Source of the DNA: Candidatus Levyibacteriota bacterium
GTDB lineage: Bacteria; Patescibacteriota; Microgenomatia; Levybacterales; UBA12049
Length of the DNA stretch: 64,000 nucleotides
Direction of reading: 5' to 3'
NCBI GenBank assembly: GCA_027459725.1
Contig: DAIDHK010000002.1
Coordinates: 35,752-99,751, forward strand
The position numbers were made by a program, and so were the translations under genes. This document shows, piece by piece, positions 578 through 20,642 of the stretch; positions within the stretch are counted from its first letter, which is position 1; every line of letters begins with the position of its first letter. The notes beneath the pieces were generated by a model that had not been told where the DNA came from, searched no databases, and was given only the letters and a program-made list of their open reading frames with translations.

Positions 578-3460
578 TTAACTAATTGTTTTTACCACAA
601 AACTATCACCTATTTCCAAAATCCCTACTAAGGCATTTTGTTTAATGTAATCTGTAAAATCCTCAGGCCACTGTGTAAGAGTGACGTTAACCATTTCATC
701 AAGCCTAGTTCCCAGCTTCTTTCTTTCTTCTTGAATCTGTCGGACAATATCTCTGGCTTGTCCTTCAGCTTTCAAATCAGGAGTAATTACTGTGTCCAAT
801 TCAAGATAAGCTTCTTTAGCAGCAGGATCATGCTTATATATTATTTTCTTAATATTAACTTCCTCAAGAATAATTCTATTCGCTTCCACTGAAAGTTCGT
901 CTATAAATCTGTTCTTATTTTTGCTAAATTTTCCTACTTTGAAGTTTTCTGGTATCACAAAGGTAATACTTGCAAGAGGTTGACGCACTCTAAGTCCCAA
1001 CTCTTTCCTTTTCGCTAAAGCCATTTCTACTATTTGTTGTGCCATAAATAATTCATTATGCTCAACTAAATACTTATCCATAATATCATGATTAAAATTT
1101 GGCCAGTCAGTTAAATGTACAGACTCATTTCCTGTTATATTTCGGTAAATCTCTTCTGAAATAAATGGTGTAATAGGCGCCATGAGTTTACAGATTGTAA
1201 TGAGCACATATGTTGCTGTCCTATAAAAAGATTCTTTATCATTCTGATCTTTAGCAGTTATACCTACTCTATCTCTACTGCGACGAATATACCAGGTAGA
1301 AAATCTTGTAATAAATATTCTAATATCACTTATTGCAAAAACACTATTATAATCTTCCAACGCCATTGTTATATTTCTAATCTGCATTTGCAAATCACAT
1401 AAAATATCTTTATCTAATATATTAGTTGGTGTAAATTCTTTCTTTTGATATATCCACTTATCAATTCCTGCATACATAGCAACAAAGTTATAAGTATTCA
1501 ATAATATAAGCAATGTTCCACGAACTTGGTTGCGGTATTGTTCTTCGGAAATCAAAATATCTTCACCTTCCATTACTGGACTACCCAGTAAATATAGCCT
1601 TAATGCATCTCCACCATACTTTTGCAGCATTTCTTTCGGATCAGGATAATTCTTGAAATTCTTACTCATTTTTCTACCATCTGTACCCAGGATTACACCT
1701 TCGACTAATACATTTTTAAAGGCAACCGATTTATATAATGCAGCACCAATGACATGTAAAACATAAAACCAGGCACGAATCTGACCGGTATACTCAGCAA
1801 TAAAATCCGGAGGGAAAAAATTCTCCAGTTTTTCAGATTTATTGAAAGGAAAATGTCTTTCTGCAAAAGAAGCAGAACCAGCTTCAATCCAACTATCTAA
1901 AACCTCAGGTGTTCTATGCATTGTTTTACCACACTTGCCACATTTAACTGTTATTTCATCAATTTCAGGCTTATGTAACGAAGTGATCTTTTGTCCAGAA
2001 GCTTCTTCCAATTCTTTGATTGAACCAGGTACGAATCGTTCACCACATTCACATTCCCAAACAGGAACAGGACTTCCCCAATAACGATTGCGGGAAATAT
2101 TCCAGTCAGGAGCAAATTCTAGGCTTTTCAAAAATCTTCCATATTTAAAATGACGAGGGAACCAGTTTACATGCTCGTTGGTTTCTTTCATTAAAGGTTT
2201 TAAAGATTTCACATCAACATACCAGGCATTTTGAGGTGCGTAATATAAACGAGTATGACAACGCCAGCAGAGTGGTACGACATGTTTGTAATCAAATTCC
2301 TGATAAATAAGACCCCGTTCACGTAAATCTTCATTCACAAACTTGTTAGCTTTAAGATAATACATCCCACCAAATTTTGGAATATCTGGGAAAATATTGC
2401 CTTCTTCATCCACGTGCATGGCAATATGTACATTTTGTTCTTTCATAACCACTAAATCTTCTTCTCCATAGGCTGCTATGGTTACCACACCTGTCCCTTC
2501 TTCAGCGGTCACAAAATCTCCGGGAATAATTTGAAATGCTTTTTCTTCAGCTTTTATATTTTTCTTATAATAATCATAATGAGGCTCAAATCTCTTACCA
2601 ACTAGCTTAGAACCCTTTATTTCTTCTATAACTTTATATTTTGGCTCTTTTTTAAGCATCTTCAACGTGGTTTTGGCTAGTATATAGTATTCATTACCCT
2701 GCCTGACTTTAACATAGGTGAATTTAGGATTTACCGCCAAAGCGGGTGTAACAATTTTATTCCAGGGAGTGGTTGACCAGGCTAAGATATATGTATTATC
2801 CTCATCGAGTAGTTTATACTTATATGTTGCTGCCAAATCAGGCATCTCCTTATGATTATCTGCATCCATTGCCACTTCAAAGTTTGAGATGGGAGTCGAG
2901 CAGTGCGGACAATAAAGTGAAACGCGCAAACCCTTGTAAATATAACCCTTGTCATACATCTGCTTAAATACCCACATTACTGATTCCATATAGGGTAAAT
3001 CCCATGTTTTGTAGGCATGTTTAAAATCAACCCAACGCCCTACATGATCTACATACCATTCCCATTCACTCGAAACTTGATTTACATAATGAAGACAACG
3101 ATTGATAAAGACTTTTATGCCAATTTTTTCTTCTATATCTTTCTTGCGCTGAATATTTAATTCTCCTTCAACTTTATTTTCAATAGGCAGACCATGTCCA
3201 TCCCACCCCCAGACTCTTCTGACATGATAACCTTTCATTGTCCAATAACGGCCAAATAAGTCTTTAGGTAGACTAGAAAGCAGAGAACCATAATGAGGCA
3301 TACCCGTAACAAATGGTGGTCCATCCAAAAATGTCCAGCGTTTATTCATTGGTCTCTGCTCGACAGATTTTTCAAATGTCCTATTTTCTTTCCAGTACTG
3401 AAGCGTTTTTTCTTCTAATTCCGGTAAAGTAACTTTTGGGTCAATTGGTTTAAAAGACAT
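578..3460 (-). CDS. ileS: Isoleucyl-tRNA synthetase, eukaryote/archaeal-like type 2
   Basis: 960 aa. Class I aaRS motifs FLDGPPFVTGMPHYGSLL (HIGH-like), GWDGHGLPIE and KMSKNFKNYPDP (the KMSK-x-x-NYPDP pattern is typical of type-2 IleRS rather than ValRS/LeuRS). Confidence 0.8.
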   Translation of the reverse strand: MSFKPIDPKVTLPELEEKTLQYWKENRTFEKSVEQRPMNKRWTFLDGPPFVTGMPHYGSLLSSLPKDLFGRYWTMKGYHVRRVWGWDGHGLPIENKVEGELNIQRKKDIEEKIGIKVFINRCLHYVNQVSSEWEWYVDHVGRWVDFKHAYKTWDLPYMESVMWVFKQMYDKGYIYKGLRVSLYCPHCSTPISNFEVAMDADNHKEMPDLAATYKYKLLDEDNTYILAWSTTPWNKIVTPALAVNPKFTYVKVRQGNEYYILAKTTLKMLKKEPKYKVIEEIKGSKLVGKRFEPHYDYYKKNIKAEEKAFQIIPGDFVTAEEGTGVVTIAAYGEEDLVVMKEQNVHIAMHVDEEGNIFPDIPKFGGMYYLKANKFVNEDLRERGLIYQEFDYKHVVPLCWRCHTRLYYAPQNAWYVDVKSLKPLMKETNEHVNWFPRHFKYGRFLKSLEFAPDWNISRNRYWGSPVPVWECECGERFVPGSIKELEEASGQKITSLHKPEIDEITVKCGKCGKTMHRTPEVLDSWIEAGSASFAERHFPFNKSEKLENFFPPDFIAEYTGQIRAWFYVLHVIGAALYKSVAFKNVLVEGVILGTDGRKMSKNFKNYPDPKEMLQKYGGDALRLYLLGSPVMEGEDILISEEQYRNQVRGTLLILLNTYNFVAMYAGIDKWIYQKKEFTPTNILDKDILCDLQMQIRNITMALEDYNSVFAISDIRIFITRFSTWYIRRSRDRVGITAKDQNDKESFYRTATYVLITICKLMAPITPFISEEIYRNITGNESVHLTDWPNFNHDIMDKYLVEHNELFMAQQIVEMALAKRKELGLRVRQPLASITFVIPENFKVGKFSKNKNRFIDELSVEANRIILEEVNIKKIIYKHDPAAKEAYLELDTVITPDLKAEGQARDIVRQIQEERKKLGTRLDEMVNVTLTQWPEDFTDYIKQNALVGILEIGDSFVVKTIS

Positions 3461-4300: not shown

Positions 4301-5182
4301 TTACAAGCTATGTACTGCCGGAATAATTTTTTCACCAAAAATTCTGATAGGCTCAATCTCTTCAACATTTCTAATGCCGAAGATAACATGTGAAACCCCA
4401 AATTCTTTGAGATGCTTACACTTTTCGATTGCATCTTGTACATTTACTTTCCCATTCTCCGGTCTTATCTGTTCAAGCACTGTAATCTCAATATCATTAA
4501 AATCACGACCTACATCTTGACAATGTTTTTTTAGAACATCTATCTTATGTTTCAATTCCTCATCACCCGATCTGGCAAACAGATTACAAGCATCAGCATA
4601 CTTCGCAACTAATTTTAAGGTTTTTTGTTCACCACCACCACCAATCAGAATAGTTGGATGAGGTTTGGATATTGCTTGCGGGTAATTCATGGGCCACTTT
4701 GCATTCACATGCCTACCCACAAATTCTTTATCATCTCCTTTCCACATCTGTAATGCCATTTGCAATGTATCTTCCAGCCTCTCAAATCTTTCTTTCAAAG
4801 GAGGAAATGGGAAACCTAAAGCATTGGATTCTTGCTCATTCCAGGCTGCGCCTATTCCCATATATGCTCTCCCGTTACTTAAGACATCAAGAGTAGTGAC
4901 TGCTTTTATAAGCAAAGCTGGATGACGATAAATTACTCCAGTTACCATCGTTCCTAATTTGGTATTTTTTGTTAAGCCAGCAAGATAACCTAATGTAGTA
5001 TATGCTTCCAACATAGGCTCTTGCGGTTCACCTATATGCTGAATCTGAAAGAAATGATCCATCACCCAAATACTATAAAAACCAGCTTTATCTGCAGTAG
5101 TTGCTATTTCAGCTAATTTCTTACTAATATTTTTATTTCCCCCTTCCCAGGTAAAACGATTAATCTGTAACCCTATTTTCAT
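4301..5182 (-). CDS. Luciferase-like monooxygenase (LLM) family oxidoreductase, probably F420-dependent
   Basis: 293 aa. TIM-barrel LLM features (WVMDHF, GIGAAW, ILIGGGG). Adjacent to cofD and cofE in a co-directional operon. Confidence 0.7.
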   Translation of the reverse strand: MKIGLQINRFTWEGGNKNISKKLAEIATTADKAGFYSIWVMDHFFQIQHIGEPQEPMLEAYTTLGYLAGLTKNTKLGTMVTGVIYRHPALLIKAVTTLDVLSNGRAYMGIGAAWNEQESNALGFPFPPLKERFERLEDTLQMALQMWKGDDKEFVGRHVNAKWPMNYPQAISKPHPTILIGGGGEQKTLKLVAKYADACNLFARSGDEELKHKIDVLKKHCQDVGRDFNDIEITVLEQIRPENGKVNVQDAIEKCKHLKEFGVSHVIFGIRNVEEIEPIRIFGEKIIPAVHSL

Positions 5183-5210
5183 AATTTCACCTCCTTCCCA
5201 AAAATATTAA

Positions 5211-6131
5211 TTATTCAATTTTTATTGTCTTTTGCGCAAGTGATCTTTTAACGTCCAATGTTTTCATTATGGTATTAGTGACTATAACTTCTATATTCAT
5301 TTTCTCAATATCAACCTTTTGATCTTTATCTTTCTCATCAATGACAATAGTATCCAAAAAATCTTTATAATACTCTGCCACACCGTTTGCAGAAACTTGC
5401 ATACCCATACTCCTCATCATCTTGTCCGCTGGTCCTTTAATAGTCATACCTCCAACAATCGGACTAACTGCTATCACCTTGGCTTGAGTTTTTTTTAATG
5501 CGTCCTTGATCCCTTCAACCGCTAAAATACTACCTATACTTACTAAGGGATTACTTGGAGCTATGAGAACTTTATCCGCTTTTATAATAGAATCCAAAAC
5601 ACCCGGAGCTGGTTTTGCTGCTGTTATACCTAGAAACTCGATTCCATGTACTTCATCTTCCGTTTGGTTTTTTACCATATATTCTTGAAAATGGATTTTC
5701 CCTTTTGGAGTTAAAATGTACGTAGAAACAGGATCATCACTCATGGGTAATAACTTAAACTTTAATCCATAATTGTCTAAAATTATTTGAGTAACTTTAG
5801 TTAAACTTTTTCCTTTTTTCAATATGTCAGTACGCAAAATATGGGTGGCAAGATCTTTATCACCGATTTTAAACCAGTCAGCATATCCCATCTTCGTGAG
5901 CTGTTCCATTGTACAAAACGTATCATTTTTTATCCCCCAGCCGGTAGTTTCATTAACCACTCCCGCTAAGGTATACGTAACAATGTCTAAATCGGGTGAT
6001 ACATGCAGACCATAGAATTCTTTATCATCGCCTGTGTTTCCGATGACAATTAAATCTTCTTCATCAATTACTTGTACAACGCCCTGTAAAAATCTCGCTG
6101 CACCCACACCACCTGCTAATACTGTAATCAT
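5211..6131 (-). CDS. cofD: 2-phospho-L-lactate transferase CofD (F420 biosynthesis)
   Basis: 306 aa. N-terminus MITVLAGGVGAARFLQGV...VIGNTGDD is typical of the CofD/UPF0052 family. Adjacent to cofE. Confidence 0.75.
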   Translation of the reverse strand: MITVLAGGVGAARFLQGVVQVIDEEDLIVIGNTGDDKEFYGLHVSPDLDIVTYTLAGVVNETTGWGIKNDTFCTMEQLTKMGYADWFKIGDKDLATHILRTDILKKGKSLTKVTQIILDNYGLKFKLLPMSDDPVSTYILTPKGKIHFQEYMVKNQTEDEVHGIEFLGITAAKPAPGVLDSIIKADKVLIAPSNPLVSIGSILAVEGIKDALKKTQAKVIAVSPIVGGMTIKGPADKMMRSMGMQVSANGVAEYYKDFLDTIVIDEKDKDQKVDIEKMNIEVIVTNTIMKTLDVKRSLAQKTIKIE

Positions 6132-17448: not shown

Positions 17449-18226
17449 AATTTATATTCTACCATGAAATATAAATAAAATCATAATAATAATATACCAT
17501 CACTGTGGTGTAATTGGTTGAGTTGACATATCCCAAATCTGAATTTCTGTAATCTGAGAATTATTGCAAGTCTGTATGTTCTGTATAGCATTGTGATTAT
17601 ATGAATTAACAAAAGTAACCTCATTTACGGACGATATCGCATAGATAAACTTTACAGGAGTCAGTATAGTTGCAGTACTACATTGAGGACCATCGGGAGA
17701 ATGAACTTGCGAATAGATTATTTGTCCGGGATATAGTGTAAGAGTCGGCTTAGGAATGGCACCTAGATCAATAACTTTTATGTTACTGACTTTTTGTATA
17801 TCATATGATACTTGAATGTAAGTTGCTACTATAGACAGTTAATTATTGAAATATTTTTTTATGTCTAAATGTTCCATATACATTGCCAGCTCCTGGACTA
17901 AAATATGCATTAGATTGTAACTGACTTGGAATACAATAAAAGACCGCAGCGTAAATTTTTTCGGATGAGACGTTGGGAGAATTATTAGGTGAAATTAATA
18001 CATTGGGTGTGAGACTGAGAGTCAAATTATTAGACATTACATTATCTAACAAAGTATAAACAAATCCAAAAACTACTAATAAAATTATTATGAGAATTGT
18101 TTGTGTCCTTCTTAAAAAAGACTCAATATCAAATAGTATTTATTAAATGTATAATCTGTATAAGAAAAATGGGGATATATCTTGAGAATATGAAAATACC
18201 TTCTATATTCTTGTTATAATAAATTT

Positions 18227-18965
18227 ATGCAAAAAAGAAGCAAGATCATAGTTAGCGCTCACGAACTAAATAACTACGTGTTTTGCAAACGAGTATGGTG
18301 GTTAAGATTTCATGGTTTTGATCAGGAATCTAACAAGTTAGAACTTGGTACACTAAGACACGATCGTTTAGTATGGCAAGCGCTAATATCACGTAAAATA
18401 TTTATTGTGGGTTTCATACTCTTAATTATTGGCCTTGTAATTCTTGTTTATGCTTTATTATCTAATCTCAATTTATAACATGAATCCTCTCTTATTTATC
18501 TCATTTATCATTATAATATCTGGTGTAATACTAATTTTTGTTTTCAACTTTTTAGAAAATATACTTGGATCCTTGACTGGTAAAATTATCTACCATGATG
18601 CCACTCAACTTCCGGGGAAGACACTAAGAGCTAAAACTTTGCCCCTAATTGGTAAACCAGATTATATCTTAAAAGAAAACGGAGAATACTTACCTTTGGA
18701 ATTTAAAAGTGGAAAAACACCAAAACACCCATATTCTAGCCATAAAGCACAACTTATGGCTTATTGCCTTCTGATAGAAGAAAATTATCATCATCGTCCT
18801 TCTGTTGGTATTTTAAAATACCCTCAAAAAGAATTTAGAATTAAATATACTATCGAAGAAGAATCTTTAACAAGACGATTAGTCAATGAAATAATACATT
18901 TAAAAATAAGTGGTGAAGAACCACATTGTGATCACCCTCAACATAACGTTAATCTAATTGATTAA
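18227..18965 (+). pseudogene. Cas4/RecB-like PD-(D/E)xK nuclease (DUF83-like), split into two overlapping frames
   Basis: ORF 18227..18478 carries the Cas4 N-terminal NNYVFCKRVWWL (YxxCxRxxWL) motif. ORF 18444..18965 carries LIGKPDYILKENGEYLPLEFKSGK (motifs II/III), QLMAYCLL (QxxxY) and a C-terminal EPHCDHPQH. The ORFs are in different frames with a 35-nt overlap inside a hydrophobic stretch. No CRISPR array is nearby. Confidence 0.5.
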
Positions 18966-19984: not shown

Positions 19985-20480
19985 CTATAATTCTTTAATC
20001 ATTTTCATATTAAAATCAGGAATATCATCCGGTTTACGGGATGTTACCATCCCTTCATGAACTACTATTTGTTCATCTATCCACTGTGCACCAGCATTGC
20101 GTAAATCAGTTTGCAACAAAGACCAAGAAGTTAATCTGCTACCACGTAATACATTAGCTTCAGCCAGTAACCAAGCTGCATGATAGATCGCAACTACTGG
20201 CTTACCTTTATCAAAAAACTTCAAAACAAATTCTACCACTTTTGGATTCATGCGCGTTCAAGATTCATTGCACCTGGTAGCATCAATGGATCATAATCTG
20301 AAGCATCTAGGTCATCTATGATCATATCTACGTCAAAATCTTTCCACCACTATTTCATATTTCAGACCTTAATTTTACCATCATGTATAGAGATTAATTC
20401 AGATTTTATTTCGTTTTTATTCAGAGCCATACGAGGCTCTTCCAATGGAGCCTGTTCAACACCATCTGTGGCTAAAATAG
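19985..20480 (-). pseudogene. DJ-1/PfpI-family (class I glutamine amidotransferase-like) gene, frameshifted
   Basis: N-terminal piece (20362..20577 ORF: SIAILATDGVEQ...) and C-terminal piece (19985..20251: KPVVAIYHAAWLL...DLRNAGAQWIDE...) are both PfpI-like. The middle segment (VDMIIDDLDASDYDPLMLPGA) is readable only in a third frame. Confidence 0.6.
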
Positions 20481-20642
20481 CTATACTTTCACTCTTTAAT
20501 CGTTGAATCATGGGAAAAATTATAGAAAGAAATAAAAGTTTTGGATAATAGATAACTAAGTTTTTGTAAAAAAGCATTTATACATTTTCTTATATGAATC
20601 CTACTAATTTTTAATAGAATATATACTTAATAGTTTAATAAT

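Follow-up and report, generated by a model that had tools for sequence, protein, structure and literature searches.

The DNA considered here is a window of 64,000 nucleotides (nt; 64 kb, the whole stretch analysed) from a Candidatus Levyibacteriota bacterium, and the subject of this work is a pair of short adjacent genes in it, both on the + strand, whose products, taken together, resemble the nuclease Cas4. Gene 1 (18227-18478, 83 amino acids (aa)) carries, according to the list of open reading frames (ORFs) and the matches to Cas4 models, an N-terminal fragment of the Cas4 fold followed by a C-terminal transmembrane helix, and its exact protein is present in the public collection as P0022. 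Gene 2 (18480-18965, 161 aa, P0001) opens with a transmembrane helix of its own and continues with the catalytic, C-terminal part of the fold. The junction reads TAA-C-ATG (18476-18482, + strand), i.e., the stop codon of gene 1 (TAA, 18476-18478), one base, and the start of gene 2; the latter is the ATG at 18480 and not the TTG at 18444 of the ORF list, in agreement with the database protein P0001 and with all homologues. An earlier note on this DNA had quoted several Cas4 motifs from the region, and every one of them is present where it had been placed, distributed over the two ORFs, which lie in different frames. A consensus scan gives a candidate promoter, TTGAGA-16-TATATT (18182-18209, + strand), 18 nt 5′ of the start of gene 1, although such sites are not more numerous than chance in this AT-rich region.

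The motifs follow the order expected of a RecB-type nuclease. In gene 1, YVFCKRVWWL (18275-18304) holds the N-terminal cysteine, C20, and aligns with FQFCKRQW of the Cas4 structure 8d3l; in Cas4 this cysteine is the first ligand of the iron-sulphur (Fe-S) cluster. GTLRHD (18347-18364), with G41 and H45, aligns with the G..H segment of the same protein, and by this alignment H45 is equivalent to His62 of SSO0001 Cas4, which a passage of PMC13621843, citing Lemak 2013, gives as the metal-binding histidine. In gene 2, directly after the helix, comes Y-x-D (Y38 and D40; 18591-18599), a motif that is invariant in the family alignment (A1), and of which, in 35 joined gene pairs (A2), the aspartate (D123 in joined numbering) is invariant and the tyrosine (Y121) nearly so. 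It is followed by GKPDY (18651-18665), which in the alignment falls on motif II of Cas4 chains and contains the predicted catalytic aspartate (D61 of gene 2, D144 in joined numbering); by P-L-E-F-K at LEFKSGK (18693-18707), the E-x-K of motif III (E74 and K76), aligning with PVEYK of 8d3l and PVEIK of 4r5q; by QLMAYCLL (18750-18773), the QxxxY motif (Q91 and Y95), aligning with QLVAQ of 8d3l and QLQIY of 4r5q; and finally by HCDHPQH (18924-18944), a clade-specific C-x-H-x-x-H in place of the CxxCx5C cluster ligands. All of these lie on the + strand.

Neither half is by itself a convincing Cas4 to the NCBI cas4 model TIGR00372 (cut-off 65 bits), against which gene 1 scores 19.4 bits, gene 2 55.1 and the joined sequence 71.1, so that the equivalog threshold is passed by the joined pair only. 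Against Cas_Cas4 of Pfam (PF01930, cut-off 22.7 bits) the scores are 16, 31.6 and 44.2 bits, the last with E=2.8e-11. The Cas4-like identity that had been proposed from the motifs, with a profile search suggested as its check, is thus borne out. Gene 1 matches the Cas4 models over profile positions 4-46 and gene 2 covers the remainder; likewise, in a profile search of the PDB, gene 1 falls on residues 6-63 of Cas4 8d3l and gene 2 on residues 101-199. The RecB-type motif set (H45, D144, E157, K159, Q174 and Y178) is complete and aligned to the corresponding Cas4 positions. An AlphaFold model of the joined product, built on an alignment of 109 sequences with the gene 1 and gene 2 rows unpaired, has a mean predicted local distance difference test (pLDDT) score of 88.3 and a predicted template modelling (pTM) score of 0.80, and in it the joined products take up the three-dimensional fold of Cas4, with long helices at residues 35-78 and 86-112. 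In local MAFFT trials the register was kept with at most ~30 gene-2-only rows in the modelling alignment. A single-sequence model is poor outside the helices (pLDDT 49.9), but helix 35-78 still reaches pLDDT 78-95. Since the fold match extends over 168 residues and the soluble part of gene 2 has only ~130, the soluble part of gene 1 is needed in its canonical place. In PADLOC-DB no known non-CRISPR defence protein was matched, the hits being Cas4 models plus weak matches to DruK, a PD-(D/E)XK protein (E about 5e-6 over 64 residues). Sequence, motifs and predicted fold, then, all make the pair a member of the Cas4 family.

What sets it apart is the membrane. The place of a single soluble polypeptide is taken here by two ORFs with one hydrophobic helix each: residues 58-78 of gene 1 (18398-18460, + strand) and residues 4-24 of gene 2 (18489-18551, + strand), both with a mean Kyte-Doolittle value of 3.18. 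Two such stretches had been reported earlier but inside 18444-18478; they exist, flanking the junction rather than lying within that interval. Over 53 pairs, the 15 residues before helix 1 contain on average 3.75 lysines or arginines and the 15 after it 0.28 (3 and 0 in the window), whilst around helix 2 the means are 0.04 in the head before it and 3.04 in the 15 residues after it. The tails left outside are short, with medians of 3 and 1 residues. By the positive-inside rule, these counts put both soluble parts in the cytoplasm and the gene boundary in the outer turn of a hairpin. The earlier suggestion of a membrane-associated Cas4-like derivative is supported by this; what it missed is that the split is itself a conserved state.

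The evidence for the latter comes from relatives. A first protein search with the joined query returned 21 of them, all of 136-187 aa, the size of gene 2 by itself, and in three loci of distant relatives a gene 1 homologue of 80-87 aa lies directly upstream, overlapping gene 2 at an ATGA or ending 2 nt short of it. Scanning a single genome for each species added 70 loci, from Chloroflexota, Methanothrix and relatives, Thermoplasmata, Levyibacteriota, Thermoanaerobacterales, a Mesobacillus metagenome-assembled genome (MAG) and MAGs labelled Gammaproteobacteria. Profile searches of the translated loci find a separate gene 1 ORF just upstream of gene 2 in 56 of 74 loci, the window counted. The junction is an ATGA overlap in 11 loci, a gap of 1-4 nt in nine (1 nt in the window) and a spacer of 8-82 nt in many, and the frame relation of the two ORFs differs from locus to locus (+1, -1/ATGA overlap, or the same frame with a stop), but in the loci compared every gene 2 opens with its own start codon a few residues ahead of the helix. 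In L074, the closest relative (81% aa identity), the junction reads TAA-T-ATG against TAA-C-ATG in the window, amid many synonymous differences. As far as this comparison goes, the split into two genes is the conserved state of the family.

Some individual junctions are worth describing. In L019, ~1 kb (4875-5910) is inserted between the genes and carries another gene, whose product has a motif recognised by eye as YkuD-like L,D-transpeptidase (HG...SNGCIRL); the halves can evidently be separated with both still kept. The spacers of 38-82 nt in Promineifilaceae-type loci (L023, L025, L026, L027, L032, L033 and L041) contain short tandem GTAATYS units as inverted repeats and seem to be a small repeat element, able to form a hairpin, placed precisely where the two genes meet. 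In L072 (5554-6425), from Chloroflexota, both halves are broken over several frames, and here the family seems to have a genuine pseudogene.

The family is large and includes single-chain members. The joined-pair profile matched 1969 proteins at E<=1e-5 in a word-indexed database, and the best 120 of these are nearly all of 169-187 aa, with only three longer. The gene 1 profile matched 271 proteins, the 120 listed being all of 78-106 aa, without a Pfam domain, and named ‘hypothetical’ or, by JGI, Cas4. When 1.84 billion cluster representatives were searched exhaustively with HMMER, 341 matched at E<=1e-30, in a list that places proteins matching both halves first and that includes single-chain relatives of 243-645 aa. 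In the single-chain relatives inspected (L010, L021, L053, P0024, P0262 and P0273 among them, all six membrane-inserted), the N-terminal Cys/His segment is followed by 2, 4 or ~8 hydrophobic helices and then by the catalytic part. They share the insertion point and the motifs with the window pair but are one polypeptide, and those inspected end in the canonical CxxCx5C. The number of helices is even in all those inspected except P0023 (236 aa, on a 1.2-kb metagenome contig), where a single hydrophobic helix between the halves would leave one half on either side of the membrane; a deletion or an artefact of assembly is the probable cause. P0262, P0263 and P0280 (516-596 aa) and P0385 (635 aa) have ~8 helices, apparently as repeated hairpin units, and P0385, in which the N-terminal segment is missing, has two TRAM domains, a nucleic-acid-binding type, in its C-terminal part.

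Both genes are, judging from substitution ratios, under selection. The ratio of nonsynonymous to synonymous substitution (dN/dS) between the window and L074 is 0.15 for gene 2, at dS 0.77, and 0.39 for the last 40 codons of gene 1; in the seven pairs of related loci that were informative, gene 1 has values of 0.09-0.30 and gene 2 values of 0.06-0.21. In the 35 joined pairs C20, G41 and H45 of gene 1 and D144, E157, K159, Q174, Y178 and C233 of gene 2 are invariant, and the three gene 1 residues are invariant also among 32 gene 1 sequences.

The C-terminal metal ligands vary between clades. Among the paired loci 44 end in CxxCx5C and nine, the window included, in C-x-H-x-x-H; the N-terminal cysteine is retained in all nine, and C-x-H-x-x-H is found in all 13 of the closest database proteins. 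Of the N-terminal cysteine plus CxxCx5C, then, the window has C20, accompanied by C-x-H-x-x-H only. Compared with single-chain relatives, H-C-D-H of the window aligns with the family's H-R-[DNS]-H, which precedes CxxCx5C, implying that the cysteine triad was lost and a new cysteine appeared at the position of the arginine. The Fe-S motif had earlier been called degenerate, and the triad is indeed absent; what stands in its place, however, is on this comparison a clade-wide conserved replacement and not random decay. Together with the N-terminal cysteine it probably forms a Cys2His2 metal (zinc) site replacing the cluster. The Solo-Cas4 of M. mazei is active without its cluster, which is dispensable for cutting (PMC12501428).

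We consider it likely (probability about 0.8) that this adjacent, separately translated gene pair gives rise to one membrane-anchored Cas4, a RecB-like PD-(D/E)XK nuclease on the cytoplasmic face. Both products would come from one transcript, probably by coupled translation. Gene 1 would provide the N-terminal cysteine and the metal-binding histidine and then cross the membrane outward; gene 2 would cross it inward and provide the catalytic aspartate, E-x-K, QxxxY and the C-terminal metal ligands. The two oppositely oriented helices could pair as a hairpin, and this pairing would join the cytoplasmic parts, on the inner side of the membrane, into one whole Cas4 fold, kept stapled, in the clade of the window, by the putative Cys2His2 (zinc) site. 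The domain identity, the conserved split, the selection, the topology signal and the fold are shown by the data above, and the physical assembly of the two products, the coupling of their translation and the zinc site are what we infer.

As to what such an enzyme might do, it is hard not to speculate. Cas4 enzymes act on free DNA ends, of which a circular chromosome has none, and a membrane-tethered Cas4 would encounter DNA on its way in, be it phage, conjugative or transforming. A possible role, which we put forward tentatively, is thus the CRISPR-independent cutting of DNA ends at the membrane, e.g., those of such incoming DNA. The most inclusive form of the idea, that of a widespread membrane Cas4 family of hundreds to thousands of sequence clusters, mostly split at the outer turn of the hairpin, CRISPR-independent and cutting incoming linear DNA ends, with a low-GC (guanine-plus-cytosine) clade using Cys2His2 zinc in place of Fe-S, is more doubtful still.

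Several points weigh against the two-subunit enzyme or its proposed role. Assembly and DNA cutting are read from sequences and models, and the zinc site is proposed purely from conservation. In the window, inspection by eye shows nothing like a Shine-Dalgarno sequence ahead of gene 2. Nor does gene context support the proposed role, most of the module's neighbours being housekeeping genes that change from clade to clade. Finally, nine loci of two Chloroflexota clades, Caldilineaceae and Thermoflexus-like (L012, L018, L031, L037, L038, L044, L046, L050 and L061), have gene 2 without gene 1 within ~6 kb on either strand; a search for gene 1 on both strands of these loci gave nothing even at E<=10, and in those genomes gene 1 is encoded elsewhere or else gene 2 functions without it.

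These nine loci also speak for the strongest competing explanation, namely that gene 2 alone is the working enzyme, N-terminally truncated and membrane-anchored, and that gene 1 encodes a separate small membrane protein, e.g., a regulator or inhibitor. All the acidic and lysine catalytic residues do sit in gene 2. The invariant C20, G41 and H45 of gene 1, the threshold passed by the joined sequence only and the place for the soluble part of gene 1 in the fold speak for one enzyme made of two products, and we regard gene 2 acting alone as improbable.

Even less probable is that the pair is a Cas4 of CRISPR adaptation, serving a CRISPR-Cas system elsewhere in the genome. Its best sequence and structure matches are, admittedly, CRISPR-associated Cas4 proteins. 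However, the 64-kb window has neither tandem nor CRISPR-like repeats, a Pfam check of the ten genes around the module found no cas gene, and no CRISPR array lies within ~6 kb of the module in 72 other membrane-type loci. The absence of an array and of other cas genes, already remarked upon in the earlier note, therefore holds, for arrays over the window and for cas genes over the ten genes checked. In the repeat scan of all 75 loci an array appeared only beside L073, the one ordinary soluble Cas4, which serves as a positive control for that scan. Neighbour clustering across loci found no conserved cas-like neighbour, and a protein tethered to the membrane could not easily assemble onto Cas1-Cas2. 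One other repeat was seen, in L055 (1728-2087), where a 91-nt unit occurs in 4.1 tandem copies ~4 kb upstream of the module; having no unique spacers, it is not CRISPR-like.

The earlier note favoured none of three readings of the two frames, and two of these now have very little left to them. A frameshifted remnant, i.e., what a recent break in this genome has left of one gene with a two-helix insert, could point to the existence of single-chain two-helix relatives (L010, P0024 and P0273) and to the real pseudogene, of the DJ-1/PfpI family, that lies 1 kb away. Yet the two-ORF layout recurs in 56 loci of several phyla with a proper gene 2 start in each, L074 keeps the junction despite its many synonymous differences, dN/dS is well below 1 (0.15) and all catalytic residues are intact in the window and invariant across the 35 pairs; such decay is accordingly most unlikely, and the refutation once proposed, an intact cas4 elsewhere in the genome, no longer applies, given that the comparative data already exclude a pseudogene. 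A sequencing error as the cause of the split was rejected on the same comparative data. A programmed +1 ribosomal frameshift at TTA-TAA-C, producing a single polypeptide with a two-helix hairpin, would read from the stop in frame into gene 2 (...NLNL-N-MNPLL...), but the ATGA overlap of 11 loci is another frame, in several loci the two ORFs share a frame and are parted by a stop, in many a spacer of 8-82 nt lies between them and in one a 1-kb insertion with another gene, a conserved slippery site is absent, and gene callers and homologues all begin gene 2 at the ATG; varying frames together with gene 2 start codons exclude a conserved event of this kind, leaving it hardly any probability.

The surroundings of the module in the window consist of cellular genes, and nothing points to viral or mobile encoding: an isochorismatase-family gene, a gene for an unannotated membrane protein and the DJ-1/PfpI family gene (19985-20577, minus strand, ~1 kb from the module), which is a true pseudogene with an in-frame TGA and TAG followed by a frameshift, and with tyrosine for the catalytic cysteine of ICHG (AIYHAAW), a contrast to the intact pair nearby. 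A pattern-based scan of 2.9 million viral contigs, which could miss distant relatives, confirmed none. Farther away (33886-63940 and 578-3460) the window contains a cell-wall/division cluster and aminoacyl-tRNA synthetase genes, its bacterial genes including ileS, ftsA, murC, a penicillin-binding protein gene, glmS, an archaeal-type glmU and a dimeric glyS; its GC content is about 35%, and a scan of the 64 kb for Rfam families and tRNAs gave no match. The combination suits a bacterium with a small genome, probably one of the Patescibacteria. In other genomes, neighbour clustering found no partner gene conserved across clades. Promineifilaceae-type loci share a downstream hisS, an NAD kinase-like gene and a recN-like gene (identified by eye). 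In nine Chloroflexota loci (L014, L019, L034, L049, L055, L056, L059, L065 and L066) a gene of ~223 aa is conserved on the same strand ~300 nt upstream of gene 1; it scores 24.5 bits against the Translin family PF01997, below the cut-off of 25.9, and the product of this translin-like gene may be a nucleic-acid-binding partner in these Chloroflexota.

If the interpretation given here is correct, it has some practical consequences. Products of gene 2 are automatically annotated ‘CRISPR-associated Cas4’ and those of gene 1 ‘hypothetical’, as a result of which such loci are counted, wrongly, among CRISPR components or pass for broken genes; to recognise a two-subunit membrane Cas4 is to correct these annotations. 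The pair would also be a case from nature of a small enzyme fold divided at a membrane hairpin, of use in the design of split proteins and in thinking about gene fission, and a concrete, testable candidate bearing on the function of solo-Cas4 proteins, still an open question. The C-x-H-x-x-H clade, for its part, is a natural experiment on whether another metal site can replace the Fe-S ‘staple’ of Cas4, Dna2 and AddB.

No description of a membrane-bound, transmembrane or split Cas4 was found in open-access full texts, which is no proof of novelty, and the words ‘transmembrane’ and ‘split’ are absent from the 2017 phylogenomic survey of Cas4 (PMC5704561). CRISPR-associated Cas4 (PF01930, TIGR00372; 8d3l, 7mi4, 4ic1 and 4r5q) differs from the system in the window in that the latter consists of two genes, has two transmembrane helices between the histidine motif and motif II, is without cas1/cas2 or a CRISPR array nearby and belongs to a clade with C-x-H-x-x-H for the three cysteines. 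More distant nucleases, i.e., the Dna2 nuclease domain, AddB/AdnA, Exo5, MGME1 and ACE1, are all soluble and many are fused to helicases, unlike the window pair, and we know of none among them that is membrane-inserted or split. In setting the pair is like Solo-Cas4 (Hudaiberdiev et al. 2017, PMC5704561; M. mazei, PMC12501428), which is also a stand-alone Cas4-family gene with no CRISPR context, and whose M. mazei representative is an active metal-dependent DNA nuclease (PMC12501428). The Solo-Cas4 proteins described, however, are soluble single chains, the M. mazei enzyme forming a large soluble oligomer (PMC12501428), whereas the pair described here would be the same kind of enzyme divided between two chains and held at the membrane.
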